A stretch of 64,000 bases of DNA from Dehalococcoidia bacterium (GTDB lineage Bacteria; Chloroflexota; Dehalococcoidia; SZUA-161; SpSt-899): positions 82,038 through 146,037 of the forward strand of contig JBLYPS010000001.1 in NCBI GenBank assembly GCA_048539495.1, written 5' to 3'. The notes under the pieces were generated by a model. That model searched no databases. It was not told the DNA's origin and worked only from the letters and a program-made list of their open reading frames with translations. Positions within the stretch are counted from its first letter, which is position 1. The number at the start of each line of letters is the position of its first letter. Shown piece by piece: positions 24,004 to 55,592 of the stretch. The position numbers and the translations under genes were made by a program.

Positions 24004-24086
24004 TGTTTTAGTATCCTTTTGTGCTCGATTATATGGGAGGCGAGCAGCCAAGAACCGAGCTGAACGCGCTATAAAGGCAATGGATA

Positions 24087-25345: not shown

Positions 25346-27091
25346 GTGGAACGGTACAATCTAAGAATAGGTATCATCGGCGGTGGGCAACTGGGTAAGA
25401 TGATGACCCAGGAAGCGAAGAAGATGGGGTTTTATGTTACCATACTGGACCCCACGCCGAACTCCCCGGCCAGTCAACTGGCTGATGAGCAGCTCGTCGG
25501 CGATTTTCATGACCGGAATAAGATAAGAGAGCTTGTCACCAGGAGCGACGTAACCACCTACGACATCGAAAACATTGACGTAGGTGCCTTAAAAGAGCTC
25601 GTCGAGGCGGGACATGTTATCCACCCTTCTCCACAGATACTGGAGATCATCCAGGACAAGTGGAAACAAAAAAAGGTACTGGAGCGCAGCGGTATCCCTA
25701 TCCCGAGGTACAAGAAGGTCGAGGGGGATGCCCTCGCTGCTGCTGTTGAGGGATTCGGGTTTCCGGTGGTGCAGAAGGCCTGCCGGGGAGGCTATGACGG
25801 GAGGGGGGTATTCGTGATTCGTACCAGAGACGATATAGGAAAGGCACTCAAAGTGGAGTCCTTCCTTGAAGAATTTGTCGAAATCGAGAAGGAGCTCGCG
25901 GTAATGGTGGCAAGGAGTACTACCGGTGAGATCAAATGCTATCCGTTAGTGGAGATGGTCTTCGATGAGGCGGCCAACATCTGCGATATGGTTGTCGCTC
26001 CCGCCCTGGTGGAGCAAAAAATTCAAGACGAGGCCAGGCGAATAGCGGTTGCCGTGGTAGAGCCACTTGGTGGAGCAGGTATCTTTGGGATAGAGATGTT
26101 CTTAAGCAAAGCGGGGAATGTCCTGGTGAACGAGATCGCCCCCCGGCCTCATAATTCGGGGCACTATACCATAGAGGCTTGCGTCACTTCTCAATTCGAA
26201 CAGCACATTCGGGCGATCATGGAACTCCCGTTGGGCTCGACGGAACTGCTCACCCCAGCGGTAATGATCAACATTCTGGGTGAGGAAGGGCATGAGGGGC
26301 CGGCAATATTCCAGGGGATTCGAGAGGCTTTGCTCATCCCTGGAGCGAGTCTGCATCTGTATGGGAAAAGGGTTACCAGACCATTCCGCAAGATGGGACA
26401 TGTAACAGTAGTGGATAAGGACGCCGAGAACGCTTTCGAGAAAGCCCAGAGGATAAAGACACTTCTGCGAGTGGTTTCCTCTGACGAGTCGAGAGTCAAG
26501 AGTCAAGAGTCGAGAGTCGGGGAGGGGCGGGGGACTCCAGACTCCAGACTCCAGACTCCAGACTCCAGACTCCAGACTCGTAAGATGGTGGCAAGGGTAG
26601 GAATCATCATGGGGAGCGAGTCCGACCTCCCGGTGATGGAAGAGGCGGGGAAACTGCTGGAGGAGTTCGGGATTGGCCACGAACTTACCATTGTCTCCGC
26701 CCACCGGACGCCGGAGAGGATGTTTCAATATGCTCGCCAAGCGGAGGGGAAGGGGATTGAAGTGATAATCGCCGGGGCCGGCGGAGCCGCTCATCTCCCC
26801 GGCATGGTGGCCTCAATAACCCCCCTTCCGGTAATCGGTGTGCCGATCGAGACAACCCCCTTGAAAGGGCTGGACTCCCTTTATTCCATCGTCCAAATGC
26901 CGGCAGGAGTCCCGGTGGCGACCGTGGGGATAAATAACGGCCACAATGCCGCAATCCTGGCGATGCAGATTCTGGGGGTGAAGTATCCGCAGATCAGGGG
27001 GAAGGTGAAGGAGTATAAGCAGAGATTGCAGGAGAAAGTCGAGGAGATGGCGCGCAGGGTTGAGCAAAGAAGGAGGCAAGAGGAAGCATGA
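25346..27091 (+). CDS. purK-purE: PurK-PurE fusion: N5-carboxyaminoimidazole ribonucleotide synthase fused to N5-CAIR mutase
   Basis: N-terminal ATP-grasp (IGIIGGGQLGKMM...) followed by PurE (VGIIMGSESDLPVMEEA...GAGGAAHLPGMVAS). The two are joined by a linker encoded by heptamer element 26486..26580. Probable GTG start. Confidence 0.85.
   Translation: MERYNLRIGIIGGGQLGKMMTQEAKKMGFYVTILDPTPNSPASQLADEQLVGDFHDRNKIRELVTRSDVTTYDIENIDVGALKELVEAGHVIHPSPQILEIIQDKWKQKKVLERSGIPIPRYKKVEGDALAAAVEGFGFPVVQKACRGGYDGRGVFVIRTRDDIGKALKVESFLEEFVEIEKELAVMVARSTTGEIKCYPLVEMVFDEAANICDMVVAPALVEQKIQDEARRIAVAVVEPLGGAGIFGIEMFLSKAGNVLVNEIAPRPHNSGHYTIEACVTSQFEQHIRAIMELPLGSTELLTPAVMINILGEEGHEGPAIFQGIREALLIPGASLHLYGKRVTRPFRKMGHVTVVDKDAENAFEKAQRIKTLLRVVSSDESRVKSQESRVGEGRGTPDSRLQTPDSRLQTRKMVARVGIIMGSESDLPVMEEAGKLLEEFGIGHELTIVSAHRTPERMFQYARQAEGKGIEVIIAGAGGAAHLPGMVASITPLPVIGVPIETTPLKGLDSLYSIVQMPAGVPVATVGINNGHNAAILAMQILGVKYPQIRGKVKEYKQRLQEKVEEMARRVEQRRRQEEA
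26486..26580. repeat. heptamer-armed palindromic element: (GAGTCRA)x5, core ggaggggcggggg, then (ACTCCAG)x6
   Basis: Read directly. The arms are reverse-complement related through GAGTC/GACTC. Translated in frame as [37 protein letters not shown]. Confidence 0.85.
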
Positions 27092-27642
27092 ACGAGGATC
27101 CGAGATCGGGGGGTAGCTTCGCGGTGAACAGGGCGATAGAGGAATTTCTGGGCAATTCCTCTGCCCCGGCTGGGATGAGGGGCGATCTGGTGCGTTTTAG
27201 CATGAAGTGCGGCGGTCGTCCTTTCTTTACCCTGACCACCGAGGAGCTGAGGGATTTTGTGATGGGAGTCAAGAAGGCCGCCGATCGCAAGAAGCGTGTC
27301 GAGGCGCTGGATGGATTTTTCAATTATGCCAAAGAGAGGGGATGGGTCATCGTGAATCCTATCACCGACCTTATCAAGAAGAAAGAACCGCGGATAAAAC
27401 CGGTATCTCCTTCCGAGAAACCTGTCTGGCTTTCCGCTGAAGGTTTTCAAAGACTTGAAGCTGAAATAGACGGACTCCTCAAAGAGAGGGCGAAAGCCAT
27501 TGCGGAGGTGAAAAGGACCAGGGAGGACGGGGACCTCCGGGAGAACGCCCCCTACCATGCTGCCCGGGAAAGGCTCGCCTGGGTAGAATCTCGGGCGACG
27601 GAAATCAGAGCCATTCTTGCCCGTGCCCGTCCCAGTGATTAG
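27088..27642 (+). CDS. hypothetical protein: integrase-SAM-like N-terminal region plus GreA/GreB N-terminal coiled-coil-like C-terminus
   Basis: REDGDLRENAPYHAARERLAWVESRATEI matches the GreA_GreB_N motif (DLSENAEY..AKE). No FKBP-like C-terminal domain is present. Confidence 0.4.
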   Translation: MNEDPRSGGSFAVNRAIEEFLGNSSAPAGMRGDLVRFSMKCGGRPFFTLTTEELRDFVMGVKKAADRKKRVEALDGFFNYAKERGWVIVNPITDLIKKKEPRIKPVSPSEKPVWLSAEGFQRLEAEIDGLLKERAKAIAEVKRTREDGDLRENAPYHAARERLAWVESRATEIRAILARARPSD

Positions 27643-27730
27643 TGATTAGGGGCTGGTGGGGGTAAATTGTAAATTGTAAATTGTAAACTGCAAATTTTAA
27701 ATTTACAATTTGATATTTACAATGTGATCG
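27637..27730. repeat. AT-rich heptamer-armed element: (agtgatt)x2, core ggggctggtggggg, (TAAATTG)x4, then inverse (CAATTTA-like)x4
   Basis: Read directly between 27088..27642 and tsaC. Confidence 0.7.
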
Positions 27731-27755: not shown

Positions 27756-28865
27756 ATGGCCAGAATCTTAGACGGGTATCAAACGGAGGCGATAAAGGAA
27801 GCGGCATCCCTCATTCAAAAAGGGGGGGTCGTGGCTTTCCCGACGGAGACGGTCCACGGGCTCGGGGCGGATGCCTTCAACCCCAAAGCCGTAGCCCTCA
27901 TTTTCGAAGTTAAGAAGAGACCCCGTTTTGATCCTCTCATCGTCCATATCGCTGAACTTTCCGATGTGAAGAAGGTTTGTCTTCACGCCGATGATCGAGC
28001 AGGGAAAGTGATGGAGTGGTTCTGGCCGGGGCCTTTGACCGTGGTGCTTCCGAAGACGCCGGAGGTGCCGGATATTGTGACGGCGGGACTTCCCACTGTC
28101 GCCGTGCGCTTACCCTCCCATCCGGTTGCCTTAAGCCTCATCCGCGAGGCACGGACGCCCATCGCCGCTCCCAGTGCCAATCTCTTTGGCTATCTCAGCC
28201 CAACGACAGCGGAGCATGTAAATGAGCAGCTCGGCAGCGCAATCGAGATCATCCTCGACGACCAACAGTCGGCAGTCGGCAGTCGGCAGTCCGGGGCGGG
28301 GTGGGGGACTAGCGACTATCGACTATCGACTTGGAATCGAGTGGGGGTGGAGTCCACCATTATTGACCTCTCTGAAGAGGAACCCGTCCTCCTGCGCCCC
28401 GGTGGAACGCCTCTGGAGGAAATCGAGAGGGTCATCGGGAGGGTAAAGATCCCGCCTCATGATCCCCAGCAACCCCGTTCTCCGGGGCAGCTTCCCCATC
28501 ACTATTCCCCCCGCACCCCCCTCAAGATTCTGCTTGATGAAGAATTGAGTATTGAGTATCGAGTTTTGAGTTTTGAGGAGGGGGGAGGGACTCCAGACTC
28601 CAGACTCCAGACTCCAGACTCCAGACTCGAGAGGGTTGGCCTTCTGGCATTCCAACGTCCCCGGGAGGGAGATTTTGCGGCAATTGAAGTTCTTTCCCCC
28701 TCCGGAGACCTCCGTGAGGCGGCGGCGAACCTGTTTGCGGCGCTCCACCGGCTTGATTCTGCCGGACTTGATCTTATCCTCGCCGAACCGGTTCCCGAGG
28801 GGGGGCTCGGCCGGGCGATCATGGATCGACTGCGCCGGGCAAGTGGAGTCCTGAGTCGAAGGTAA
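27756..28865 (+). CDS. tsaC: L-threonylcarbamoyladenylate synthase (TsaC/Sua5 family, with Sua5 C-terminal domain)
   Basis: VAFPTETVHGLGADAF..., PLIVH, GPLTVVL and APSANLFG motifs. It carries two in-frame heptamer elements, at 28267..28333 and 28546..28630. Confidence 0.85.
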   Translation: MARILDGYQTEAIKEAASLIQKGGVVAFPTETVHGLGADAFNPKAVALIFEVKKRPRFDPLIVHIAELSDVKKVCLHADDRAGKVMEWFWPGPLTVVLPKTPEVPDIVTAGLPTVAVRLPSHPVALSLIREARTPIAAPSANLFGYLSPTTAEHVNEQLGSAIEIILDDQQSAVGSRQSGAGWGTSDYRLSTWNRVGVESTIIDLSEEEPVLLRPGGTPLEEIERVIGRVKIPPHDPQQPRSPGQLPHHYSPRTPLKILLDEELSIEYRVLSFEEGGGTPDSRLQTPDSRLERVGLLAFQRPREGDFAAIEVLSPSGDLREAAANLFAALHRLDSAGLDLILAEPVPEGGLGRAIMDRLRRASGVLSRR

Positions 28866-28871
28866 TCCGAT

Positions 28872-29273
28872 ATGAACCAGCTAACATTTTTTGAAAAAGA
28901 GGAAAAACAACTAATCAATTTAAAAGAAGCGAGCAATTGGGCTTCGCAATACTTGAACCGTAACGTTACAATTTCGAACATCTCATATTTGCTCCAATAT
29001 GGAAGAATAAAGAAATACGGGAGTAGTGGCAATCCCTTGATAAATATTGAGGAACTTAAAGATTATTACGCCTCTTATGACAAGGAAGAACAATGGAAAG
29101 GGAAATTGGGGACAGACCTTAATTGGCGTTTGTCTTTTGTGGAATACAAAGAATCAGAAAGAACCAAACACGTTCACAGACTACATCCTTACAAAGGAAA
29201 ATTTATACCTCAATTAGTAGAATATTTTCTTGGCGCTCATACTGACGAATTTAAGCAAGGGGAGATATTATGA
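28872..29273 (+). CDS. hypothetical protein of the AT-rich island; its C-terminus carries a short motif like the HPxxKPxxLxxxI helix of N4/N6 MTases
   Basis: About 30% GC. ...TKHVHRLHPYKGKFIPQLVEYFL. Overlaps the next ORF by 4 bp. No FxGxG or DPPY motifs, so it is not a complete MTase. Confidence 0.4.
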   Translation: MNQLTFFEKEEKQLINLKEASNWASQYLNRNVTISNISYLLQYGRIKKYGSSGNPLINIEELKDYYASYDKEEQWKGKLGTDLNWRLSFVEYKESERTKHVHRLHPYKGKFIPQLVEYFLGAHTDEFKQGEIL

Positions 29274-29479
29274 AAACATTTGAAGTTGTTTTAACAAAAT
29301 CATATATTGTTAGAATAAAAGCAGAGAGCGAAAAGAAAGCAAAAGAATATTCAGAGTTATTTACGGGCGATATTCAGGATATTTCATCGATTGATTATAG
29401 AAAAAAGTTCAATTTTGAAATAGAAGATATTAATTGTAAGATAAATGAATCTTTTGAGGTTCAAGAAGAATTACTATGA
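29270..29479 (+). CDS. hypothetical small protein (69 aa), translationally coupled
   Basis: ATGA overlaps at both ends. AT-rich island codon usage. Confidence 0.35.
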   Translation: MKTFEVVLTKSYIVRIKAESEKKAKEYSELFTGDIQDISSIDYRKKFNFEIEDINCKINESFEVQEELL

Positions 29480-30336
29480 AAAAGATTAAAACACAAGTAT
29501 TATTGGGTGATTGTAAAGATATTTTGAAAAATTTTGAAAATGATTGCATTGATTTAATATTTACATCCCCTCCTTACGCGGATAGACGTGTTCATTCATA
29601 TGGTGGGATTAAACCTGAAGAGTATGTTGACTGGTTTTTATTTAGAAGTGAACAATTTTTAAGGGTATTAAAACCAGAAGGTACATTTATATTAAATATT
29701 AAGGAAAAAGCAGAAAAAGGTGAGCGACATACCTATGTTTTAGAACTAATTTTAGCATTAAGAAAACAGGGTTGGTTATGGACAGAAGAATTTATTTGGC
29801 ATAAAAAGAATTGTTATCCTGGAAAGTGGCCAAATCGTTTTCGTGATGCTTGGGAAAGATTGCTACAATTCAATAAAACTAAAAAGTTTAAAATGTTCCA
29901 AGAAACAGTTAAGATACCTGTTGGTGACTGGGTTGAAGATAGATTAAAGAACTTAAGTGAAAAGGATAAAATAAGGTTTGAATCAAGGTCAAAAAGCGGC
30001 TTTGGGAAAAATATTTCAAATTGGTTAAAGCGTGACAAAGTTTATCCTACAAATGTATTACATTTGGCAACTGAATGTAGTAATAAAAATCATAGTGCTG
30101 TTTTTCCAGAAGGTTTACCAGAATGGTTTATAAAACTGTTTACAGAAGAGGGAGATACTGTATTAGATCCCTTTATGGGTTCAGGCACAACATTAAGAGT
30201 TGCCAATAGAATAAGAAGAAATTCAATAGGAATTGATATTGTTTCAGAATATTATGAAATGGTGAAATCTGAAATAAAAGAGTGTGAATATTTATTATTT
30301 GAACCAAAGGCGAAATATGAAATTAAATCTAAATGA
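29476..30336 (+). CDS. DNA methyltransferase, beta-class N6-adenine/N4-cytosine (PF01555-like)
   Basis: Motif IV TSPPY near the N-terminus. HSAVFPEGLPEWFIKLFT followed by motif I DPFMGSGTT near the C-terminus. This circular-permuted order defines the beta class. Confidence 0.85.
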   Translation: MKKIKTQVLLGDCKDILKNFENDCIDLIFTSPPYADRRVHSYGGIKPEEYVDWFLFRSEQFLRVLKPEGTFILNIKEKAEKGERHTYVLELILALRKQGWLWTEEFIWHKKNCYPGKWPNRFRDAWERLLQFNKTKKFKMFQETVKIPVGDWVEDRLKNLSEKDKIRFESRSKSGFGKNISNWLKRDKVYPTNVLHLATECSNKNHSAVFPEGLPEWFIKLFTEEGDTVLDPFMGSGTTLRVANRIRRNSIGIDIVSEYYEMVKSEIKECEYLLFEPKAKYEIKSK

Positions 30337-31063
30337 AGTAAAGGAATATGCAGAAAAGCATATTTCCACTTTTCATCAAAAACGACTTGAATATGTTTCA
30401 ACTACAATTAAATTAGATAAAATTCTTAAGCAGAAAAATCCTTATTTATTCAGGGCTAAAAATATTTTGACTGCCCAAGACTTAATAAAAGGTTTTTTAG
30501 ATGCCTTTCTTCAATCTCAGGAAGAAACTTTATTTGGTGAATTTATTGAGGGTTTAGCAATTTTTGTATGCAACAAAGTTTTTAGCGCGAAAAAACCACC
30601 GTTAACAGGAATTGATTTGGAATTTGAAAAAGAAAATTGCATCTACATTGTAGAAATAAAAGCTGGATGGAATTGGGGCAATGCAAGCCAAATTAAGCAG
30701 TTGAAAATTAATTTTGAAAATGCCAAAATTTTTTTAGAAAAACAGACAGGCAAAAAAGTCATTGCTGTAAACGGATGTTGTTTTGGAAAAAAGAAAAATA
30801 GAAACCCTGAAAAAGATGGTTACTATAAAATTTGTGGACAAGAATTTTGGCAATTAATTTCGGGAAGTGAAAATTTATATGTTGATATTATTGAACCGAT
30901 TGGGCACAAGGCAAAACAAAAAAATGAAGAATTTCTCGAATCTTATGCTGTTGTCGTAAATAAATTTACATTAGAATTTGCTCAACGGTTTTGTATAGAT
31001 GGGAAAATTGATTGGAAGAAACTTTTGGAATTTAATTCAGGACAAATAAAGGAACATAAATAA
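30317..31063 (+). CDS. PD-(D/E)XK nuclease-like protein (candidate restriction endonuclease subunit)
   Basis: GIDLEF...ENCIYIVEIKAG gives a D...E-x-K arrangement. About 30% GC. Confidence 0.5.
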   Translation: MKLNLNEVKEYAEKHISTFHQKRLEYVSTTIKLDKILKQKNPYLFRAKNILTAQDLIKGFLDAFLQSQEETLFGEFIEGLAIFVCNKVFSAKKPPLTGIDLEFEKENCIYIVEIKAGWNWGNASQIKQLKINFENAKIFLEKQTGKKVIAVNGCCFGKKKNRNPEKDGYYKICGQEFWQLISGSENLYVDIIEPIGHKAKQKNEEFLESYAVVVNKFTLEFAQRFCIDGKIDWKKLLEFNSGQIKEHK

Positions 31064-31086
31064 TGAGTTTCTATCCGTAAATTAGA

Positions 31087-31728
31087 ATGGCATTATTCTC
31101 TTTTATCCATTCTTTGAACACTATATTTGGGACATCTATTTTTGAGCCTGTTGCTGAAACGATAGCAAGTTTGAGTTTTGAATTCGCACAAAAACAGTAT
31201 ATAATTGGCGACACTATAAGTGAACAAGCCCAGTCTGAAATTCAACGTATTATGAATGATCTTACGATAGGAAAAACACCAAACAAGACTGAAGAAATAG
31301 AAAGGCTAAGAAAAGTATGCAATAAAGGAAGAATGAACAAATTAAAAACTGTAAAAGTAGATTTATTTGTTCAAAGCGCTGATGAAACAGCCTATTTATT
31401 TGATTTAAAAACAGCCAAACCGAATATCAGCAATTTTAAAGACTTTAAAAGAACATTGTTAGAATGGGTTGCCATTTTTTTGGCAAGAAATCCTGACGCA
31501 AAGGTGAGCTCATATATTGCTATTCCCTATAATCCCTATGAACCAAAACCTTATGAAAGGTGGACGCTAAAAGGAATGTTAGATCTGGATCAAGAATTAA
31601 AGGTGGCAGAAGAACTATGGAATTTTCTGGGGAATGATGCTGTCTATGGAGAATTACTAAATTGTTTTGAAAAAGCAGGTATTGAATTAGGACCAGAAAT
31701 TGATGCCTATTTTTCAAAATTCAAGTAA
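31087..31728 (+). CDS. PD-(D/E)XK nuclease-like protein, distant paralogue of the preceding gene
   Basis: VDLFV...AYLFDLKTAK gives D...D-x-K. Same motif spacing and context as 30317..31063. Confidence 0.45.
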   Translation: MALFSFIHSLNTIFGTSIFEPVAETIASLSFEFAQKQYIIGDTISEQAQSEIQRIMNDLTIGKTPNKTEEIERLRKVCNKGRMNKLKTVKVDLFVQSADETAYLFDLKTAKPNISNFKDFKRTLLEWVAIFLARNPDAKVSSYIAIPYNPYEPKPYERWTLKGMLDLDQELKVAEELWNFLGNDAVYGELLNCFEKAGIELGPEIDAYFSKFK

Positions 31729-31863
31729 AAAGCAATAGGGCAATAGGATTAAGGGTGAAAATGCCCACAACGACAGATAACACGAGCTATACGGCTCACT
31801 TCATCCGCCCAAAGTTCGGCTTCGCCGAAACTTCGTATATGATGAAAACGTTGGAGGAAGATA

Positions 31864-32826
31864 ATGTATGAAGTCGAGCTGATAACCATCGAGGAAAGGG
31901 ATGCCATAATAAGCAAATACGAGAAGCTGATAACCTGGCAGAGGAAGGCTAACATCAACGGAGCGTGCATAAAATTCTTCACCAACAATAAGCTGTTCAA
32001 GGAGATGTGGGAGGACAATTTCTGGTTCATGAGCGATGATGTTCGTCCCCATGCAAGGGTCTTCGCCCTGGAGGCCGGGGGGGAACTCAGGGTCTATTAT
32101 GAGCCAATATCGAAAACGGTGATTATCCTCGATTGCGATTACTACGGCTGGGTAAAGTCGATCACCCTTGCCCTCACGGCGGATCTCTTTGAAGATTACC
32201 ACTCGGCTCGAAGAAGATTTTCCGTCCATGGGGCGGCTTTAGACTTCGGTGGCATAGGTATAACCATCATCAGTCCCTCGGGGACGGGGAAAACCACACT
32301 TGCCCTCGGTCTGCTGCTATTTGAAGAGGGGAGCCGGCTGGTCTCGGAGGACTGGTACTTCGTTCTACCATCGAGGAAGTATTTTGTTGCCTCTGCATCG
32401 GAGAAAGAAATTTACGTGAGGGGTGATATAGGAGATATCTGGCCGCAGTACCGGATTATGGTTAAGGAGGGCGTGTCCGACCCTAAGGGAAGAGCGATCA
32501 CCGACCTGACGCGAGCGCTCGGAGAGGGCAGGACGATCCAACAGACGACGATAAGAAGTGCCGTGCTGCTCAAGAGGGATTACCATGATGAGGAAACGGT
32601 AAAGGGGCTTACCTCCCCGGAAGCACTGGAATTTATGAAATCCAACGATTTTTGTAACCCTCATCAACTGGTCAGGACGGAAGCCAAGCACAGAATAAGG
32701 ACGGAATTCTTCGAGAGGTATTTTGCCAGCCTGGACCGTATTTACATTGTTAACACCATTCTCAAGCCGGAGGAGACTCTAAACAGGGTAAGGGGATTGC
32801 TGTCAGACGGAGGTTTATTGGGATGA
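31864..32826 (+). CDS. HPr-kinase C-terminal-domain-like P-loop protein
   Basis: GIGITIISPSGTGKTTLALGLLLFEEGSRLVSEDWYFV parallels the HprK_C P-loop (GxSGxGKS..AL.L...G..LVaDD). Confidence 0.45.
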   Translation: MYEVELITIEERDAIISKYEKLITWQRKANINGACIKFFTNNKLFKEMWEDNFWFMSDDVRPHARVFALEAGGELRVYYEPISKTVIILDCDYYGWVKSITLALTADLFEDYHSARRRFSVHGAALDFGGIGITIISPSGTGKTTLALGLLLFEEGSRLVSEDWYFVLPSRKYFVASASEKEIYVRGDIGDIWPQYRIMVKEGVSDPKGRAITDLTRALGEGRTIQQTTIRSAVLLKRDYHDEETVKGLTSPEALEFMKSNDFCNPHQLVRTEAKHRIRTEFFERYFASLDRIYIVNTILKPEETLNRVRGLLSDGGLLG

Positions 32827-33968
32827 AGGCGATACTGGTATTAGAAGATGGGACGGTGGTTGAGGGAAAGGGATTTGGATCTATTGGCAAAGCCCGGGGA
32901 GAGATCGTCTTCGCCACCGGAATGAGCGGCTACGTTGAATCATTAACTGATCCCTCCTATGCCGGCCAGACGCTGATGTTCACCTACCCCTTGATAGGGA
33001 ATTATGGGGTCAATGAGGAGGACTATGAATCGGATGGAATAAAGGTGGAAGGGATTGTGGTAAGGGAAGTCTGCCACCGGCCGAGCAACTGGAGATCCCA
33101 GAAGAATCTGGAGGAGTTTGCGCTTGAATTCCAGACCCCCGGTATTTGTGGAATCGACACCCGTCGCCTCACCAGAAAGATCAGGACCCATGGAACGATG
33201 AAAAGCGTCCTTCAGACGTTTGCCGGAGGTGAGGAGGTGAACCTGGAGGCTTTGAAGAGGGAAGTTAGGGAACAGAAGGGCATCTCCGAATTGAATCTGG
33301 TGGGGGGAGTCACCACGGTCGGGGCTAAACGAGTCAAGAGTCAAGAGTCGAGAGTCACGGGGAGGGGGACTCCAGACTCTGGACTCTGGACTCTGGACTC
33401 CAGATATGAGGTGGTGCTCGTAGACTGCGGTGCCAAGAGGAGCATCACGGAGAATCTACTGTGCCGGGGAATAAACGTCACCCTTCTTCCTTTCAACACT
33501 TCAGCGGAGGAAATTCTAGGTTATAATCCCGATGCGGTGTTGATTTCCAATGGCCCGGGCGACCCGGCGGTGGTGAAGGAAACCATCGCCACGGTGAGTA
33601 AGCTCATCGGCAAAACCGTGCTTTACGGAATCTGCCTCGGGCAGCAGATCATCTCCCTTGCACTGGGTGCCCGAACATATAAGCTGAAGTTCGGGCATCG
33701 GGGTTTGAATCAGCCGGTGAAAGACTTTGAAACAGGGAGGGTCTTTATTTCCACCCAGAACCACGGCTTCGCCGTTGCCGAGGAGGGGCTGGCGGAAATC
33801 GGGCTCGAGGTGACCCACATCAATCTGAATGATAATACCATTGAGGGCTTGAAACATAAGGAGCTCCCCATCAGAATGGTTCAGTATCACCCGGAAGCCG
33901 GACCCGGCCCGCATGACACCTATTCCTTCTTCGATTCGTTGATGGACGACATTTCCCGGAGGCATTAA
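32823..33968 (+). CDS. carA: carbamoyl-phosphate synthase small subunit (glutamine amidotransferase)
   Basis: MKAILVLEDGTVVEGKGFG.., GICLGQQ (catalytic Cys) and the HPE motif. Heptamer element 33331..33404 lies in frame at the inter-domain linker. Confidence 0.9.
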   Translation: MKAILVLEDGTVVEGKGFGSIGKARGEIVFATGMSGYVESLTDPSYAGQTLMFTYPLIGNYGVNEEDYESDGIKVEGIVVREVCHRPSNWRSQKNLEEFALEFQTPGICGIDTRRLTRKIRTHGTMKSVLQTFAGGEEVNLEALKREVREQKGISELNLVGGVTTVGAKRVKSQESRVTGRGTPDSGLWTLDSRYEVVLVDCGAKRSITENLLCRGINVTLLPFNTSAEEILGYNPDAVLISNGPGDPAVVKETIATVSKLIGKTVLYGICLGQQIISLALGARTYKLKFGHRGLNQPVKDFETGRVFISTQNHGFAVAEEGLAEIGLEVTHINLNDNTIEGLKHKELPIRMVQYHPEAGPGPHDTYSFFDSLMDDISRRH

Positions 33969-34012: not shown

Positions 34013-35482
34013 ATGGGGGATCAAATGACAATAATACCAAAATGCATGAGCACCCAACATCCTGACAATGTGAATCCCCCGTTTTTTGCCGAGAACACTG
34101 TACTTGGCGGAGAGGACGAGATACAAGAAGTATACTATGTCTTTTCTCATTTAGGTTGTGATGAGCAGATGTGGGATTATGAAGGGAAGGAAGTTGATAA
34201 TTATGTAGTTAAAAAACTGTTGACAAGATACGAACCTTTTTTCAGGGATAAAAGACTAGGCAAAGATGTCTTTGTAACCTTAAGAGTGCCTAATCCTACT
34301 GAAGAAAAAGCCGAGGCAAAAATTTTATTGGAAACCCTGGAAAGCATACCCAGGTCATTTGATGCCGCTAAATTATTTTACCGAGATGATACACCTCCAA
34401 TATTCGAGGTTATCTTACCAATGACAGCCTCTCCCGAGTGTATTGATAGGATTTATAGGTATTATTGCGATTTCCTTGTAGGCAGGAGAAATAAACCACT
34501 TAAAAAAGGCGATATAACAATTGCTGAATGGGTTGGAGAATTCAAGCCTGAAAGAATTAACGTCATACCTCTCTTCGAAGACATGAAACACATGCTTGAT
34601 GCCCACAATATAACAAGAACATACTTACAGGACAAGGATTTAGAATACCAGAGAGTTTTTCTGGCACGCTCGGATCCAGCAATGAATTACGGGCTTGTTA
34701 GCACTGTTTTTGTAAATAAAATTGCCCTTCAAAGATTACACAAATTATCTGAGGATATTGGTGTTAAAATATACCCTATCATTGGTATGGGGTCAGCTCC
34801 TTTTAGAGGCAATCTCAAACCACAGACAGTAGAAAGGGTGGCAAAAGAATATCCAAGCATTCATACATTTACCATTCAATCCGCATTTAAATATGACAAC
34901 CACCCTGATGAAGTTAGAGAAGCTATAAGAAAGCTACAAAAAAGAAAAATAGAGCCACCTCAGGAAGTAGATGAGGAGAGATGCTTGGAAATAGTTAGGA
35001 AATGTTCTCAAGAATACCAAACCCAAATAGAAGGATTAGCACCAGTGATCAATGAGGTTGCCAAGTATGTTCCGCCTAGAAGGAAGAGGAAATTACATAT
35101 CGGGCTATTCGGCTATGCCCGTAGTATGAGAGGAATTACATTACCAAGGGCAATAACATTTACCGCCGCCCTTTATTCTATAGGTTTGCCACCAGAAATT
35201 CTTGGTTTGAATGCTTTGGATGAAGGTGACATTCAATTTATTAAGAAGGTTTACGTAAACTTTGAAGATGATTTAAGAGATTCCCTAAAATACGTTAACC
35301 CGGATACAGGTTTCCTACCCCAAAATCTGAAAGCAAGGGTTAGAGATTTTCCGATAGATATCGAAGTTAATGAAGAGCACAAAGAAATAACAGACTATGT
35401 TCTGAGTTCATTAAGAGAAAACAGGGGCGATTTAGGAAATTATGTTTTAAGAGCAGCTAATTTAAGAAAATTCCTTGGATGA
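34013..35482 (+). CDS. ppcA: archaeal-type phosphoenolpyruvate carboxylase (atPEPC/PpcA)
   Basis: The N-terminus ...IPKCMSTQHPDN is diagnostic of atPEPC. About 490 aa. GC is clearly lower than the flanking carA and carB. Confidence 0.8.
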   Translation: MGDQMTIIPKCMSTQHPDNVNPPFFAENTVLGGEDEIQEVYYVFSHLGCDEQMWDYEGKEVDNYVVKKLLTRYEPFFRDKRLGKDVFVTLRVPNPTEEKAEAKILLETLESIPRSFDAAKLFYRDDTPPIFEVILPMTASPECIDRIYRYYCDFLVGRRNKPLKKGDITIAEWVGEFKPERINVIPLFEDMKHMLDAHNITRTYLQDKDLEYQRVFLARSDPAMNYGLVSTVFVNKIALQRLHKLSEDIGVKIYPIIGMGSAPFRGNLKPQTVERVAKEYPSIHTFTIQSAFKYDNHPDEVREAIRKLQKRKIEPPQEVDEERCLEIVRKCSQEYQTQIEGLAPVINEVAKYVPPRRKRKLHIGLFGYARSMRGITLPRAITFTAALYSIGLPPEILGLNALDEGDIQFIKKVYVNFEDDLRDSLKYVNPDTGFLPQNLKARVRDFPIDIEVNEEHKEITDYVLSSLRENRGDLGNYVLRAANLRKFLG

Positions 35483-35619: not shown

Positions 35620-38469
35620 ATGCCAAGAAGGTCTGATATAGAAAGGATCCTGCTCATCGGGTCCGGCCCGATCATCATCGGGCAGGGCTGCGAGTTCGAT
35701 TACTCCGGGAGCCAGGCTTGCAAGGCGCTGCGGGAGGAGGGCTATGAAGTCATTCTGGTCAATTCGAACCCGGCAACGATCATGACCGACCCGGAGATGG
35801 CAGTGGCGACTTACATCGAACCATTGACCCCAGAGGTGATCGAAAAAATAATCGAGAAAGAAAGACCGGACGCTCTCCTCCCCACCCTCGGCGGTCAAGT
35901 TGGACTGAACATCGCCGCCGAGCTCTCCGAACGGGGAGTCCTCCAGAAATATAACGTGGAGCTTATCGGGGCCAAGTTCGAGGCAATCAGAAAGGCCGAA
36001 GATAGGATTCTCTTCAAGGAGGCAATGGAAAGGATAGGCCTGCGGACTCCGCGGAGCAAAGAGGCTTATTCGGCGGAAGAGGCGACAAAAATTGCCGAGG
36101 AGATCGGCTACCCCGTGGTTATCAGGCCGGCCTACACCCTGGGGGGAACCGGGGGCGGAATAGCCTTCAACCGGGAGGAGCTGGAGGTGATATCCGCCAG
36201 GGGCATAGAGTTCAGCCGCATCGGGCAGGTTCTTATTGAGGAGTCGGTCATCGGTTGGAAGGAATATGAGCTTGAGGTGATGAGGGACCTGGCCGACAAT
36301 GTGGTTATCATCTGCTCGATAGAGAACCTGGACCCCATGGGGGTTCACACCGGCGACAGCATCACCTGCGCTCCAGCCCAGACTTTGACCGACAGGGAAT
36401 ATCAGGAGATGCGCGATGCTTCCATAAAGGTCATGCGAGAAATTGGTGTTGAAACCGGGGGCTCGAATATTCAGTTTGCCGTAAATCCCCAAAACGGAGA
36501 AATGGTAGTCATCGAAATGAATCCCCGGGTGAGCCGAAGCTCCGCCCTAGCATCAAAGGCCACCGGATTCCCCATTGCTAAGATCGCCGCCAAACTCGCC
36601 GTCGGGCTCACCCTGGATGAGATACCGAATGATATAACGAAGGAAACCCCCGCCTCTTTCGAGCCAACCATAGATTATGTAGTGGTCAAGATGCCCCGAT
36701 GGCCCTTCGATAAGTTCCCCGAGGCGGATAAGACGCTCACCACGCAGATGAAATCGATCGGCGAGGCGATGGCACTGGGGAGGACATTTGAGGAAGCCTT
36801 GCAGAAGGCGGTGAGGTCGTTGGAGATCGGGAAGTACGGATTAACGAGTCGAGGGTCAAGAGTCGAGAGTCCAGAATCACGGGGAGAGGGACTCCAGTTG
36901 ACGGGCAAGATGCCCGTCCTACCAGACTCCAGACTCCAGACTCCAGATAGTCTTGGGGAGGAATTGCTCAACAAGCTGAGATTCCCGGTCGCCGAAAGAA
37001 TCTTCCTCGTCGCAGAGGCTTTCAAAAGGGGAATTCGTGTGGAAGAGGTGGCCGAACTCACCAGGATCGACCCCTGGTTTCTGGAGAAGGTCAAGAACAT
37101 CACGAGTCTAGAGTCTAGAGTCGAGAGACTCCAGTTGACGGGCAAGATGCCCGTCCTACCAGACTCCAGACTCCAGACTTCAAATCTCATCCCCCGGGAG
37201 CTAATGCTCGAGGCGAAGAGGATGGGTTTCTCCGATAGACAACTCGCTGATCTCTTGAAGACCGATGAGCTGGAGCTTCGGGGCAAAAGAAAGGAAATGG
37301 GGATAGTTCCAACATATAAGCTGGTGGATACCTGCGCCGCCGAGTTCGAGGCCAAGACTCCTTATTACTACTCTTGTTATGAAGATGAGGATGAAGTCGA
37401 GGTAACGCCAAGAAAGAAAATGCTCATAATCGGCGGGGGGCCGAACAGGATAGGGCAGGGTATTGAGTTTGACTATTGCTGCGTTCAGGCGGTTTTTGCC
37501 CTCAAGGAAGAGGGGTATGAAACCATAATGGTAAATTGCAATCCAGAGACGGTGAGCACAGACTACGACACCGCGGATAGACTATACTTTGAGCCTTTGA
37601 CCTTCGAGGATGTCTTAAACATCATCGAAAAAGAAAAGCCCGATGGAGTGATTGTTCAGTTCGGCGGTCAGACGCCTTTGAATCTGGCTATCCCTCTGGA
37701 GAAAGCGGGGGCGAGAATAATAGGAACCTCCACCAATTCCATTGATATGGCCGAAGATAGAAAAAGATTCAGCGCGCTCTTGCTAAGATTGGGCATTCCT
37801 CAGGCTGAGAATGGGACCGCTCTCTCCCTTGAGGAGGCGCTGAAGATAGCAGCAAGGATTGGTTACCCTGTTCTGGTCAGGCCTTCCTATGTGCTGGGTG
37901 GGAGGGGAATGGAGATAGTTTACGACGAGGAAACTCTGGTGAGGTACATGCGGGCAGCAATAGAAATATCTCCGGGAAAGCCGGTCCTGGTAGACAAGTT
38001 CTTGGAAGAGGCCACCGAGGTTGAGGTGGATGCCATCTTCGATGGGGAGGATCTCATGATCGGAGGGATAATGGAGCACATCGAGGAAGCGGGGATCCAT
38101 TCCGGTGACAGCGCCTGTGCTTTGCCCCCCCAGAACCTGGCCACTGAGACCCTAAGGGTGATAAGGGATTATACCGACAAGATCGCCCGGGAGCTGGATG
38201 TGAGAGGGTTGATGAACATCCAGTTTGCGGTGAAGGACGGGAGGGTGTATGTCCTGGAGGTGAATCCAAGAGCGTCCCGGACTGTGCCCTATATTAGCAA
38301 GGCGAGCGGCGTTCCCCTGGCGAAGATAGCCGCTAAAGTGTTGCTGGGCAAAACCTTAAAGGAACTGGGGGTGATGCGAGTCGAGAGTCGTCGAGAGTCG
38401 AGAGTCGGGGAGGGGTGGGGGACTCCAGAGCGAAGCGTCTCCAGACTCCAGACTCAAAACTTCCTGTAG
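35620..38469 (+). CDS. carB: carbamoyl-phosphate synthase large subunit, N-terminal about 90% (frame ends inside a heptamer element)
   Basis: Both ATP-grasp halves (two GSGPI(V)IGQG.EFDYSG motifs) and the oligomerisation domain, with in-frame elements at 36846..36946 and 37103..37183. The frame terminates at 38469 inside element 38377..38454. Confidence 0.85.
36846..36946. repeat. heptamer-armed element with REP core (TTGACGGGCAAGATGCCCGTCCTAC at 36898..36923) inside carB
   Basis: (GAGTCGAG-type 7-mers), the REP hairpin with its CTAC tail, then (AGACTCC)x3. In frame: [36 protein letters not shown]. Confidence 0.85.
37103..37183. repeat. second heptamer-armed element with REP core (37135..37160) inside carB
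   Basis: gagtctagagtctagagtcgag, then the REP, then agactccagactccagact. In frame: [26 protein letters not shown]. Confidence 0.85.
38377..38454. repeat. degenerate heptamer-armed element at the carB frameshift point
   Basis: gagtcgagagtcgtcgagagtcgagagtc, core ggggaggggtggggg, then gactccagagcgaagcgtctccagactccagactc. The arm units are irregular. The two carB ORFs overlap here in different frames. Confidence 0.8.
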
Positions 38470-39182
38470 CGGTAAAGGAGGCCGTTTTCCCGTTCTCCAA
38501 GTTCCCCGAAGTGGATCCGATCCTCGGTCCGGAGATGAAATCGACCGGCGAGGTGATGGGAATCGATGCCGACTTCGGTGTAGCTTTCTACAAGGCTCAG
38601 CTCGGTGCCGGAATGAATCTACCTGCTGAAGGCACGGTGCTCATCACGATCGCCGATAAGGATAAAGCGCGAGTAGTTCCGGTCGCCAGAAAATTCCAGG
38701 AGCTAGGCTTCGAGATCCTGGCCACCTCGGGAACTCAGGCTTGTCTCTCGGACCACGGAATCGAAAGCAAGAAGGTCTTCAAGATTCACGAGGGGAGGCC
38801 GCACATCGTGGATTACGTGAAGAACAAAATGGTGGACATAATCATAAACACCCCGCTGGGCAAAAAGGCAAGATACGACGATAGTTATATCAGAAAATCA
38901 GCGGTGCGGTACAACGTTCCCTATTTCACCACCGTCTCCGGGGCGGGGGCGGCGGTGATGGGGATAGAGGCGATAAAGAACCAAAAGGTGTTTTTCGAGC
39001 CTATACAAACATATCATGCCAAAACGAGTCGAGAGTCTAGAGTCGAGAGTCGGGGAGGGGTGGGGGACTCCAGACTCCAGACTCGAAAGGGGGAGGAACC
39101 TAATGCGCAGCGATACGTTGAAAAAAGGTCTGCAACGGGCACCGCATCGGTCACTACTCAAGGCTTGTGGGGTGATGGATGA
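38415..39182 (+). CDS. carB: carbamoyl-phosphate synthase large subunit, C-terminal MGS-like domain fragment (separate frame)
   Basis: After the element: [43 protein letters not shown]...MGS domain. The likely biological end is near 39030 (EPIQTYHAK). The open frame runs through element 39026..39086 into ilvD. Confidence 0.7.
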
Positions 39183-40752
39183 AGATATGGAGAAACCCTT
39201 CATTGCGGTGGTAAATTCATGGACCGAGATAGTGCCCGGACATATTCATCTTCGGGGGATAGCCGATGCCGTGAAAGAGGGCATAAGAGAGGCCGGGGGA
39301 CTGCCCTTCGAGTTTCACACCATCGCCGTATGCGATGGCCTGGCCATGGGGCACGATGGGATGCGATATTCCCTGCCATCGCGGGATGTTATCGCCAACT
39401 CCATCGAAATAATGGTGAGGGCCCATGCCCTGGACGGGATGGTGATGATCCCCGCCTGTGATGAGATCGTTCCCGGACACTTGATGGCAGCAGGCCGATT
39501 GGATATCCCCACCATCGTGGTTACCGGGGGGCCGATGTTGCCGGGGGAGTTCAAGGGCAAGAATGTGGATATAATTGATGTCTTCGAGGCGGTGGGCATG
39601 GTCAGCGATGGTAAGATGGGGATGGATGATCTAAAGGAGTTAGAGGGCTGTGCCTGCCCTGGTGCCGGGACCTGCGCCGGGATGTTTAGTGCCAATACCC
39701 TGGCCTGTGGGGTGGAGGCCCTCGGTCTGTCGCTGCCCGGTTGTGGTTGTGCCCACGCCGTGGATGCCAGAAAGATAAGGATTGCCCGGCAAAGCGGGAA
39801 GGAGATTGTGAGCCTGACAAGCCGTAATATCACCGCCAGAGAGATAATGACTTACGAAGCCTTTCTTAACTGGATCCGGGTGTCCCTGGCGGTAGCGGGG
39901 TCAACCAACGATGTGCTGGAGATACTGGCGATCGCCAGGGAAACCGGGATTGAGATGTCCCTAGATATATTCGATGAGCTGAGTAGAACCACCCCACATA
40001 TCTGCAATATGCGCCCCGGCGGCTCGTATACCTTGTGGGACCTGGATAGGGCGGGCGGGGTTCCGGCGATAATGAAACGGCTTGAGCCGCTGCTGAACCT
40101 GGAGTGTCTTACGGTTAGCGGCAGGACCGTGGGTGAAAACATCGCCTCGGTGAAGATCGCTAACGAGGATGTGATCAGGCCCCTCGACAATCCCGTTCAT
40201 GGTAGCGGTGGGTTAGCCATACTCTACGGAAGCCTGGCTCCTAAAGGGGCGGTAGTGAAACAGACAGCGGTGGTAGAGAGTATGCTACGAACAAGAGGGC
40301 GGGCTCGGGTCTTTGACTCCGAGGAGGAGGCTTTTGAGGCGATAACCGGCGGGAAGATACATCGAGGCGATGTGGTGGTTATTCGCTACGAAGGCCCGAA
40401 GGGGGGGCCGGGGATGAGGGAGATGCTTGGTCCCACCTCGGCTATCAGCGGCAGAGGGCTTGCCGACTCCGTGGCACTGGTCACCGATGGCAGATTCTCG
40501 GGCGGAACCCGTGGTCCGTGTATCGGACACATATCGCCTGAAGCGGCCGAGGGAGGGCCGATCGCCCTTGTTGCCGAGGGCGACTATATTTCTATAGACA
40601 TCCCCAACCGCCGGATAGACCTGGAGATCGACCAGACCGAATTTGAGAAGCGCAAAAGGGATTGGCGGCCCAGGAAAAAGGAGGTCAGGGGATACCTGCG
40701 GGAATATAGACAGGGTTGCTTGAGCCCCGAGCATGGTGCTAGCATGAAATAG
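39098..40752 (+). CDS. ilvD: dihydroxy-acid dehydratase
   Basis: [23 protein letters not shown]... and CDGLAMGH motifs. RBS gggagga lies before the ATG at 39098. The track ORF starts earlier by reading through element 39026..39086. Confidence 0.9.
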
Positions 40753-46522: not shown

Positions 46523-47422
46523 TTATCCTCGGCAAACGCTTTCTTCCAGAAATTGGAATAACGCCTGTGCTGCCGGGGAGAGCACTTTCTGTTTCCGATG
46601 AACGATGAAGAAGTCGCGGGTGAGCTCCAGACCCTCGATATCCATCACCTCGATGAGACCCAGTTTCACTTCGTGCTGAACCGCCCTTTCGGATACAATG
46701 GAGACACCAGCACCGGATTCCACCGCCCTTTTCACCGCAGTGGTGCTTCCCAGGGTCATAGTGATATTGAGATCATCCAGACTGAGGTCAGCCTTTTTTA
46801 GCTTTTGCATAAGTGTGCTTCTGGTGCCCGAGCCAGCTTCTCGCATTACGAATGGAGCTCTCTTAAGCTCATCCAGCCTTGCCACCCCTCCGGTGAACCA
46901 CCTGTTCTGAGCGGGGACAATCAGCACCAGTTTATCACTAAGAAACGTGGTGAAGGTCAGTTTGTCGCTCTTCTCGCTCGCCCCCACCACCCCGATCTCA
47001 ATCCCGTTCTCCAACAGCCTCTTGATGATTCCCCTCGTATCATCGAGGGTCATGGTAATCTCTATGCCCGGGTAGCTCTCCCTGAATCGCTGCAGAATTC
47101 CGGGCAGGATATATTCCCCGGGGATATTGCTTGCGCCCACGCTGATCTCACCCCAAAGTAGTCCTTTGAGTCGGTGTATGCCCTGTTCTGCCTCAGAAAC
47201 CAGCTCCATGATTCGCAGCGCATAGGCGTATAAGACCTCTCCGCTTCTGGTGAGGGTGGTGGTCCGCCCTCCGCGGTCGAACAGCCTGGTTCCCAGCCCC
47301 TGCTCCAGGGAGGCGATCTGGAAGCTTATGGTTGGCTGGGTCAAGCCCAGCTTTTCACCGGCCAGAGAGAAGCTTCGCCTGTCTGCCACAGTGCAAAATA
47401 TCTTCAACTGTTTGATGTCCAT
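46523..47422 (-). CDS. LysR-family transcriptional regulator
   Basis: N-terminal HTH (MDIKQLKIFCTVADRRSFSLAGEKLGLTQPTISFQIASLE) plus a LysR substrate-binding domain. Confidence 0.9.
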   Translation of the reverse strand: MDIKQLKIFCTVADRRSFSLAGEKLGLTQPTISFQIASLEQGLGTRLFDRGGRTTTLTRSGEVLYAYALRIMELVSEAEQGIHRLKGLLWGEISVGASNIPGEYILPGILQRFRESYPGIEITMTLDDTRGIIKRLLENGIEIGVVGASEKSDKLTFTTFLSDKLVLIVPAQNRWFTGGVARLDELKRAPFVMREAGSGTRSTLMQKLKKADLSLDDLNITMTLGSTTAVKRAVESGAGVSIVSERAVQHEVKLGLIEVMDIEGLELTRDFFIVHRKQKVLSPAAQALFQFLEESVCRG

Positions 47423-47564
47423 GCTTCCAGTATAGCAAACTTATGACATAAACCCAAGTCGTAATTACTCAGGTGGATAGGCTGAAGACTGAAGGTTTTT
47501 AGGAATTTCGTAATCACCAAATCGCTGAACGCTTACTTGCAATCAGCTACCTGAATGGAGTAAA

Positions 47565-48956
47565 ATGCGAGCGTATATGGAATTGAAAAGCGATTTTCGC
47601 CACCTGCCCAGCGTTGATAAGTTAATCTCGCAGGAGCGCATCAAGGAACTCAGCGAGGTGTATTCGCACGAGACCATTGTGGATGTGGTGCGCCGGCACC
47701 TGGACGAGCTTCGCCTTTCTCTGAGCCGCGGCGATCCCTGCCCCTCTTTTGACGAGATGACCGATGCGGTTGTGGCCCGGATTCAGTCCCTGGGGACCAT
47801 TGGCCCAGGGCGGGTGATAAACGCCACCGGGGTGATACTCCACACAAATCTAGGCCGAGCCCCCCTTAGCTCGGACGCCATAGCTGCCATGAAGCTGGCC
47901 GCGGAGGGATTCAATAATCTGGAGATCGACCTCGAAAGCGGGAAGAGGGGTTCCCGACAGGTTCATGTCAGTCAATTGTTGTGCCAACTCTCTGGCGCCG
48001 AGGATGCCCTGGTAGTCAACAATAACGCTTCCGCGGTGCTCCTGGTCCTCAGCGCCCTGGCCAGGAAAAGGGAAGTTATCGTATCCCGCGGCCAGGCGGT
48101 GGAGATCGGCGGAGGCTTTCGTATTCCTGATGTGATGAGGCAGAGCGGGGCCAAGCTGGTGGAAGTGGGAACAACCAACTGCACCTATATTGCCGACTAC
48201 GAGCAAGCGATCACACCTCGAACGGCGGCACTGCTGCGAGTCCACTCAAGCAACTTCAGGGTGGTTGGTTTCACTCAGGAAGTTGCTCTAGAGGAGCTGG
48301 TTCACCTGGGCAAGCAGTATGAGCTGCCGGTGTTCGATGACCTGGGCAGCGGCTGCCTCCTGGACACCACCAGGTTCGGTCTGGATGCCGAGCCACGAGT
48401 GCAGGATAGTATCGCCGCCGGTGTAGGGCTAGCCTGCTTCTCGGGAGATAAGCTGTTGGGTGGTCCACAGGCGGGCATCATCGTAGGCCGGCAGCATCTG
48501 ATCGGCAAGCTGAAGAGGCATCCGCTGGCGCGAGCGGTTCGCATCGACAAGGTTAGGCTGGCGGCTCTCTCGGCGACGCTGATCCACTATCTCAAGCGGG
48601 AAGCCACGAACAAAATCCCTATATGGCGCATGATTGCCTCTTCTCTGAGCGAGATCGAAGTGCGGGCCGATCAATGGGCACGGGCGGTGGGCGATCTGGC
48701 AACCACGGCAACGGGGGAATCTACCGTGGGCGGAGGAAGCTTGCCCGGCAGCACTCTACCCACCAGACTGGTGGTCATCAAAACGCCGCCTAATCTCAGG
48801 GTACATGACCTGGCACAGAAACTACGCCTGGAGGCGATGCCGATCGTTGGACGCATCGAGCGAAATGCCCTGGTCCTCGACCCTCGCAGTGTTCTTCCCG
48901 AAGAGGATGCTGCCGTCACCCAGGCCCTACGCGGAGTTTTCTCTGCGTGCAACTAG
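47565..48956 (+). CDS. selA: L-seryl-tRNA(Sec) selenium transferase
   Basis: 463 aa. SelA-family motifs include ...INATGVILHTNLGRAPLS... and the PLP-lysine region FSGDKLLGGPQAGIIVG. Confidence 0.8.
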   Translation: MRAYMELKSDFRHLPSVDKLISQERIKELSEVYSHETIVDVVRRHLDELRLSLSRGDPCPSFDEMTDAVVARIQSLGTIGPGRVINATGVILHTNLGRAPLSSDAIAAMKLAAEGFNNLEIDLESGKRGSRQVHVSQLLCQLSGAEDALVVNNNASAVLLVLSALARKREVIVSRGQAVEIGGGFRIPDVMRQSGAKLVEVGTTNCTYIADYEQAITPRTAALLRVHSSNFRVVGFTQEVALEELVHLGKQYELPVFDDLGSGCLLDTTRFGLDAEPRVQDSIAAGVGLACFSGDKLLGGPQAGIIVGRQHLIGKLKRHPLARAVRIDKVRLAALSATLIHYLKREATNKIPIWRMIASSLSEIEVRADQWARAVGDLATTATGESTVGGGSLPGSTLPTRLVVIKTPPNLRVHDLAQKLRLEAMPIVGRIERNALVLDPRSVLPEEDAAVTQALRGVFSACN

Positions 48957-55591: not shown

Positions 55592-55592
55592 A

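Follow-up and report, generated by a model that had tools for sequence, protein, structure and literature searches.

In the contingency loci of Haemophilus, Neisseria, and Mycoplasma, the gain or loss of short units within an open reading frame (ORF) shifts the frame, and genomes may differ in tract length only. Rickettsia palindromic elements (RPE), reportedly described by Ogata et al. in 2000, are dispersed hairpin repeats lying in frame in conserved genes, where they are translated as extra loops at surface or linker positions. The subject is also treated in PMC1779305 and PMC10969869. The heptameric short tandemly repeated repetitive (STRR) sequences and small dispersed repeats (SDR) of cyanobacteria, which Mazel in 1990 and Elhai et al. 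in 2008 (Genome Res 18:1484) are said to have described, are scattered tandem 7-nt repeats and small hairpins nested in other repeats, and they also occur within genes. The carB gene is naturally split in Aquifex aeolicus and Methanocaldococcus jannaschii, where the split is conserved, lies between the homologous halves of the protein, and leaves each part with its own start signals. Repetitive extragenic palindromes (REP) and REPINs are associated with RAYT (Y1) transposases (PMC3116915), and some REPs are GTAG-tagged (PMC3733652). Here, we describe a carB gene whose frame is lost inside a hairpin element with tandem heptamer arms, in a 64,000-nt stretch of DNA (the window; positions 82,038 to 146,037 of contig JBLYPS010000001.1, 153,950 nt) from a Dehalococcoidia metagenome-assembled genome (MAG; GCA_048539495.1). 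The cause of the frameshift is a GTC and two GAGAGTC units that are extra in the left arm of the element at the third of three such sites in carB (site 3).

The gene row around the break is carA (32823-33965), an archaeal-type PEP carboxylase (34013-35479), carB, and ilvD. A reading made earlier from the letters of the window alone (the sequence-only reading) had described a carB frame with a continuation from 38415 in another frame, the two overlapping in a heptamer element, and the ORFs and the sequence confirm this arrangement. The frames overlap by 55 nt and both cross the element. In the NCBI annotation of the MAG, carB appears as two coding sequences (CDS) of 949 aa and 255 aa. Native CarB sequence in the upstream frame stops at ...LKELGV (~38373), the final 31 codons being element-encoded or out of frame, and the 949-aa product would be without the conserved KEAVFPF...MKSTGEVMG segment and without the allosteric domain. 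The first start codon in the open -1 frame is GTG 38415, from which the 255-aa 'hypothetical protein' MFW0858689.1 runs. The second synthetase domain ends in the downstream part (KEAVFPF...MKSTGEVMG), where the MGS/allosteric domain and an element-derived C-terminal extension of ~50 aa follow. The sequence-only reading had placed the start of the MGS domain at the beginning of the downstream ORF; this has to be corrected, as the Pfam match to MGS begins at residue 87 of the 255-aa ORF and its ~45 first native residues are still part of the second synthetase domain. In E. coli CarB, the carbamoyl-phosphate synthetic unit spans residues 553-933 and the allosteric domain residues 933-1073 (PMC6245113). 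On this scale, site 3 falls between residues 881 and 889, and the downstream piece holds core catalytic sequence (889-933).

The site-3 element is composed of a left arm (38377-38406; CGAGTC GAGAGTC GTC GAGAGTC GAGAGTC), a G-rich loop (38407-38421), and a right arm (38422-38455; GACTCCA GAGCGAAGC GTCTCCA GACTCCA GACTC). Its length was compared with that of other alleles as a spacer measured between two conserved peptides flanking the site, and the comparison was made between assemblies, not raw reads. Two conspecific assemblies carry an intact allele. The first (L109; QLUL01000118.1, GCA_018725425.1) aligns to window positions 36122-40379 with 5 mismatches and one gap of 17 nt, and the second (L110; BBPE01006370.1) aligns to 35847-40220 with 2 mismatches and the same single 17-nt gap. 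Both are 99.9% identical to the window over ~4.3 kb, and the 17-nt difference is the sole indel. At the left arm, the window reads ATGC GAGTCGAGAGTC GTCGAGAGTCGAGAGTC GGGG, compared to ATGC GAGTCGAGAGTC GGGG in the intact alleles; placement of the 17 nt within the repeat is ambiguous, 38378-38394 being equally valid. The spacer is 93 nt (31 codons, in frame) in the conspecifics and 110 nt (out of frame) in the window. Moreover, the 90% cluster of the window CarB includes P0250 (992 aa, from L109) and P0254 (1069 aa, from L110), both of which run in a single frame through site 3. On this comparison, carB here would be one gene and not two. The sequence-only reading had looked to read-level data for an indel restoring a single carB frame, as the observation that would speak against its claim; such an indel is present at the level of independent assemblies, not at that of reads.

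The 17 nt are most simply read as a 10-nt plus a 7-nt tandem duplication, and Tandem Repeats Finder detects a period-10 repeat in the site-3 left arm. The number of GAGAGTC units in this arm is 2 in the short allele and 4 (interrupted) in the window. The novel junction AGTCGTCGAG is present neither in the short allele nor in the sister copy of the element 650 nt downstream. There is no repeated 20-mer in the short allele at this place, and therefore a de Bruijn graph should not be able to make it by cycling, so that supporting reads would be needed. The window and both intact alleles do not differ in the loop or in the right arm, the AGCGAAGCGTCT module included. An inserted agcgaagcgtct, a 12-nt insert of the right arm which had been named earlier as an irregularity breaking the frame, is thus acquitted: the intact alleles share it, and in relatives it appears again as a 16-nt module in tandem, with CTCCAGAGCGAAGCGT standing twice in a row at carB site 1 of L086-L088.

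No other indel was found against four conspecific assemblies (L090, L109, L110, and L111) in ~8 kb of overlap, which takes in G5 and C7 runs as well as four other elements, and the window consensus can therefore be taken as accurate. A protein search with the 129-aa junction peptide returned short distant fragments only and no further conspecific alleles. The junction pattern AACTGGGGGTGATG-N60-90-AAAACTTCCTGTAGCG gave 0 matches in the scanned metagenome contigs, a scan that evidently missed BBPE01006370.1, whose 62-nt gap fits the pattern. A fused CarB query against genome contigs found ~60% relatives among the matches listed. In addition, three other assemblies, of this species or of close strains, have contig starts near site 3, namely L111 at window position 38478 (23 nt after the element), L108 at 38582, and L090 at 38706. 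These contig ends, 23-250 nt downstream of the site, suggest a local assembly difficulty or heterogeneity.

The same loop is variably occupied in relatives. In L081, L082, and L085 (~88% aa identity), the site is empty (LKELGVSEVRFDH) and the spacer is 39 nt. ATCGAGT/AAAACTC heptamers occupy the site in L084, with a spacer of 57 nt, and in L083, with a spacer of 102 nt, while L086-L088 (87% nt identity) hold GGGTCAG units in a spacer of 102 nt; the 110-nt spacer of the window is of the GAGTC type. The loop at site 3 accepts insertions of 6-21 residues in relatives. The spacer is not a multiple of 3 in the window only, being in frame in 8/8 other genomes and in the conspecifics, and against the empty-site relatives the window has a net gain of 71 nt at site 3, which is 2 modulo 3. 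All other site-3 spacers and the eight other intragenic elements of the window are in frame, and therefore the in-frame condition is the selected state and the window the exception. At carB site 1, L086 differs from L087 and L088, all three being strains from sister metagenomes, by 21 nt, that is, by three heptamers in one arm, with the frame kept; this difference is direct evidence of unit-number polymorphism filtered by selection. The ratio of nonsynonymous to synonymous substitution rates (dN/dS) against relatives is 0.08-0.15 in the downstream part (185 codons) and 0.04-0.12 in the upstream part (388 codons). Since the downstream dN/dS equals the upstream value, any inactivation must be recent. 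The downstream part has been translated until very recently, or is translated even now because the break is not real.

A separate observation concerns the related MAG L085 (GCA_023271105.1), in which carB has a frameshift at ~1060-1070 in a C-run (TTGCCCCCCAG, compared to TTGCCCCCTCAG in L082). The MGS part is annotated there as a hypothetical protein of 143 aa.

Table 1. Elements and reading-frame features of the window, listed by position
Feature	Position in window	Strand	Remarks
alaS element	10581-10616		In frame
purK-purE ORF element	26486-26579		In frame
tsaC elements, two copies	28263-28331; 28541-28628		In frame
carA element	33329-33400		In frame
carB upstream frame	35620-38469	+	ATG 35620, 949 codons then TAG; Pfam CPSase_L_D1/D2/D3, ATP-grasp; MFW0858688.1
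carB site 1	36846-36947	+	In frame; nested GTAG-type REP-like hairpin 36900-36922
carB site 2	37100-37179	+	In frame; same nested hairpin 37137-37159; empty in all relatives examined
carB downstream part	38337-39182	+	-1 frame, open stop-to-stop
carB site 3, heptamer-arm hairpin element	38377-38455 (79 nt)	+	Place of frame loss
17 extra nt, GTCGAGAGTCGAGAGTC (GTC + two GAGAGTC units)	38390-38406	+	Sole gap in 4.3-kb alignments to L109 and L110
16-nt module CCAGAGCGAAGCGTCT with mini-hairpin GCGAAGC inside	38425-38440	+	Right arm of site 3; the 'inserted agcgaagcgtct' of the sequence-only reading
Stop of carB upstream frame (TAG)	38467-38469	+	
Sister copy of the element	39026-39084	+	Loop identical to site 3 (GGGGAGGGGTGGGGG); carB/ilvD junction, 650 nt downstream
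Isochorismatase (nicotinamidase)-QRPTase ORF element	61441-61524	minus	In frame

Judged by these comparisons, the break is either a variant in repeat length or an error of assembly, and carB has not evolved into a split gene. The sequence-only reading had put forward a slippage-prone site and an assembly error among its options. As a pair they hold, the difference being a 17-nt change in tract length; telling one from the other is a matter for reads. We put the chances as even that the 17 nt are a real repeat-tract length variant and the window allele a null allele of carB. The lineage tolerates heptamer-arm hairpin copies, of which carB has three, at surface loops and linkers in many housekeeping proteins, where they keep the frame. 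In the normal allele of the species, the third copy adds 18 codons at the loop of E. coli CarB 881-889 and is translated through. In the window, a left arm longer by 17 nt puts everything downstream in the -1 frame, and the extra 17 nt would be a genuine length variant produced by slipped-strand or duplication events in the sampled cells. The result would be a carB allele that is frameshifted and probably without function, with an intact one present in the same population or species. The variant presumably arose in vivo and not during assembly, and the truncated product is presumably inactive. A random consensus error poorly explains a clean insertion of repeat units 17 nt long, which favors this reading.

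Several points weigh on the other side. carB is normally essential for arginine and pyrimidine synthesis, and two frame-breaking steps (+10 and +7) from the short allele would be odd for a live lineage. Tracts of 2-4 units are short for efficient slippage. The evidence consists of assemblies, which leaves room for an artefact; read mapping or polishing could go astray on the sister copy at 39026-39084, and the breaks of L111, L108, and L090 near site 3 mark a region evidently hard to assemble.

An assembly or polishing artefact is accordingly the strongest competitor, a possibility to be taken seriously even if we lean away from it. The true site 3 would then be in frame, with a spacer of 93 nt or another multiple of 3, and the repeat would have been mis-resolved, for example by a chimeric path through strain variants or by sister-copy reads mis-mapped during polishing. 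It is consistent with this explanation that the two in-frame conspecific assemblies are otherwise only 2-5 substitutions apart from the window, that carB is the sole broken gene among ~50 checked by Pfam and is broken exactly in a repeat, that the downstream ORF is fully conserved, and that other assemblies fragment beside the site. The C-run frameshift in carB of L085 and the sister copy, whose 35-nt core is identical to that of site 3 and whose left arm has four units, point in the same direction. However, the insert is not copied from the sister arm, in which TA takes the place of GTCGA; the novel junction calls for supporting reads; and the conspecific overlap, homopolymers and four other elements included, shows no second indel. 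A clean 17-nt insertion of repeat units is also atypical of consensus error.

It is very unlikely that the 949-aa and 255-aa products assemble non-covalently into an active CarB, as a functional split would require. For such a split, one may point to a break in a loop tolerant of inserted residues, to an intact and conserved downstream ORF, to GTG 38415 behind a GGAGG-like loop, to the two annotated CDS, and to the split carB of Aquifex and Methanocaldococcus, which is however split at a different position. On the other hand, the split is not conserved: in close relatives none was found, L109, L110, and L081-L089 all being single-frame across site 3. There is no domain boundary at the break, which lies inside the synthetase domain, ~50 residues before the allosteric domain and upstream of MKSTGEVM, and not at the 933 border. 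Furthermore, no properly spaced start or ribosome-binding site was found for the downstream carB part. This part is retained in full only with GTG 38415 as its start, a codon that stands 1-2 nt after the sole Shine-Dalgarno (SD)-like motif, the GGAGG of the loop, compared to GGAGG, 6 nt, and ATG at ilvD; the next starts (38511, 38535, ...) remove conserved residues and are without an SD motif. The overlap of the two frames by 55 nt also speaks against two separate genes. The real split carB that had been listed as an option is thus unsupported in view of single-frame conspecific alleles at 99.9% identity, a break inside a catalytic domain, and the cramped start.

The least likely explanation is adaptive phase variation, in which the tract would toggle carB, or recoding, in which ribosomes would slip by -1 at G-runs in the loop (e.g., GGG 38419-38421) or bypass the hairpin, for although 7-nt changes alter the frame and a change of +7 or -17 brings it back, near-identical genomes differ in length, GGG codons can re-pair perfectly at -1 and have an SD-like GGAGG shortly before them, and the -1 frame is open across the entire element, the 130-nt zone for a -1 repair (38337-38466) has no X XXY YYZ slippery heptamer and only single GGG or AAC P-site codons as slip candidates, no stimulatory structure was found downstream, where a distance of 5-9 nt would be expected (fold z +0.2), the out-of-frame state occurs in no relative, 2-4 units are far below known contingency tracts, and carB has a core biosynthetic rather than a surface or restriction function.

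Other candidates were rejected. RNA and DNA folding of the site-3 copy gave no significant structure, no better than shuffled sequence (z +0.2), unlike the sister copies, which disposes of a stable hairpin as a frameshift stimulator or bypass signal. An intron or a known RNA element was rejected because Rfam had no matches in or near carB. The loss of a second 16-nt module (+16 nt) was dropped, the intact alleles being also single-copy, and a homopolymer error in the G-rich loop was rejected because both the intact alleles and the sister copy have the same loop. In a quasi-palindrome (templated) correction from the right arm, the added units should carry the complement of the right-arm spacer, whereas they have the left-arm spacer GA.

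For the preferred reading, that of a genuine repeat-length variant, the nearest likeness is to contingency loci. The mechanism, by which an intragenic tandem repeat changes its length through slipped-strand or duplication events, is of a familiar kind. As at those loci, an intra-ORF tandem unit is not a multiple of 3 (GAGAGTC), and a frame-toggling length difference separates near-identical genomes. Unlike them, carB has a short (2-4 units) and imperfect tract, not the long uninterrupted one of usually >=6 units that gives rise to high switching rates; the change is of 17 nt (7+7+3), which is no whole number of units; and the gene encodes a core enzyme. The likeness to split carB ends with CarB being made from two ORFs, since the window break lies at E. 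coli ~881-889, is absent from conspecifics, and has no proper start. A wider proposal, that the heptamer arms are hypermutable and make reversible on/off carB alleles in natural Dehalococcoidia populations, seems unlikely; if true, the repeats would switch cells between prototrophy and an auxotrophy for arginine and pyrimidines that depends on the community, the 110-nt allele being one 'off' state, to be reversed by a change of +7 nt or -17 nt. For annotation, MFW0858688.1 and MFW0858689.1 are best taken together as a single frameshifted carB instead of a truncated enzyme plus a hypothetical protein, and an inference of arginine or pyrimidine auxotrophy for the organism needs read-level confirmation.

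The frameshift itself is ordinary, and the element family to which site 3 belongs is the more interesting object. In the 64-kb window, GAGTCGAGAGTC with <=1 mismatch has 29 matches vs 0.21 expected, and GACTCCAGACTC has 33 vs 0.37 expected. There are at least 10 element copies, dispersed and with inverted-repeat arms. Sister copies fold as long imperfect DNA hairpins (z -3.1 to -5.7; z -1.6 for the 39026 copy), in which 5-bp GAGTC/GACTC stems recur every 7 nt with 2x2 mismatches between them. The cores GAGTC and GACTC are GANTC sites (HinfI/CcrM-type motif). Eight elements lie within long ORFs, with Pfam domains on either side in one frame, mostly in inter-domain linkers, and all eight share the orientation of the host gene. 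As 7 and 3 have no common factor, the same stop-free arm peptides (ESRVESR..., DSRLQTP...) are read in every phase. The sister copy at the carB/ilvD junction displaces the carB stop and shifts the last codons, giving a tail of ~50 aa that overlaps the ilvD start at 39103. This copy is gap-free in L090, L109, L110, and L111 and is thus a reproducible feature of the species.

No matching description of such heptamer-hairpin elements was found in the literature. By architecture, they can be likened to RPE, being dispersed hairpin repeats that are translated in frame. They are unlike RPE in that their arms consist of tandem heptamers, which have a GAGT/ACTC core and spacers that differ by lineage, in that the elements are 60-100 nt long and of variable unit number, and in that orthologous sites in relatives hold different heptamer families. 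The window copy of site 3 is not an in-frame insertion of the RPE kind, whereas the conspecific allele of that copy is. The cyanobacterial STRR and SDR, which they resemble in heptamer and nested architecture, differ in that the present heptamers belong to Chloroflexota/Dehalococcoidia and form inverted arm pairs around a G-rich loop, mostly inside ORFs. These elements change length between 99.9%-identical genomes, and selection normally holds the frame; they are a measurable source of indel mutation in essential genes of the lineage.

The arms also vary between lineages. When L083, L084, and L086-L088 are set against window positions 36846-36947, 38377-38455, and 39026-39084, orthologous positions in carB and at the carB-ilvD junction hold different heptamer units by lineage (ATCGAGT/AAAACTC, GGGTCAG-type, GAGGCTG/AGCCTAT, and CAAAGGG/CTTTGTG). 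Either the orthologous element sites are hot spots or arm turnover takes place in situ. Elsewhere in the window, purK and purE are read as one ORF of 581 codons (25346-27088), and the element there forms the PurK_C/AIRC linker. The adjoining ORF of 184 aa (27088-27639) has a GreA/GreB N-terminal domain alone, at its extreme C-terminus, and its end is the exact start of a heptamer hairpin of GTAAATT/AATTTAC units (27634-27727); this could be another gene, the second, that an element has truncated.

The hairpin nested in carB sites 1 and 2 is of another kind. This GTAG-tagged sequence, GTAGGACGGGCATCTTGCCCGTC, is present in three copies in a perfect 43-bp tandem array (12496-12612) beside a Y1 (IS200-like) transposase ORF (12639-13094), with further copies at 22553-22575 and 23071-23093 in addition to the two in carB, which translate as LTGKMPVLP. 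Together with the Y1 ORF, it looks like a REP/RAYT-type system, in that it begins with GTAG and adjoins a Y1_Tnp ORF as described for REP/REPIN (PMC3116915) and GTAG-tagged REPs (PMC3733652). The likeness concerns the nested hairpin and not the heptamer arms or the frameshift, and unlike such REPs, two of its copies are intragenic and translated.

About 50 genes other than carB, checked by Pfam, gave full-length matches and no frameshift, and the ORF pairs 29476/30284, 56531/57010, and 58037/58527 were rejected as frameshifts, being separate genes. An OYE-family ORF (17190-18083) is without its first ~70 residues and has no upstream continuation in any frame. Two islands of low GC content, 28000-32000 (0.38) and 52000-56000 (0.45) vs ~0.55 elsewhere, both contain restriction-modification genes: an N6_N4 methylase, an EcoO109I-like endonuclease, and an N-terminally truncated TdeIII-like endonuclease in the first, and a 1202-aa Eco57I/MmeI-type enzyme in the second. 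Mobile-element genes are represented by a resolvase-like ORF with an IS605 TnpB (23533-25337) and by an IS21 istA with a truncated istB (58037-59909). A selenium cluster (46526-50363) encodes a LysR regulator, SelA, and a SelD-like protein. Finally, a cobalamin riboswitch (7177-7315, minus strand) lies upstream of a cobalamin/ABC transport operon, and the window has one tRNA (16999-17071).

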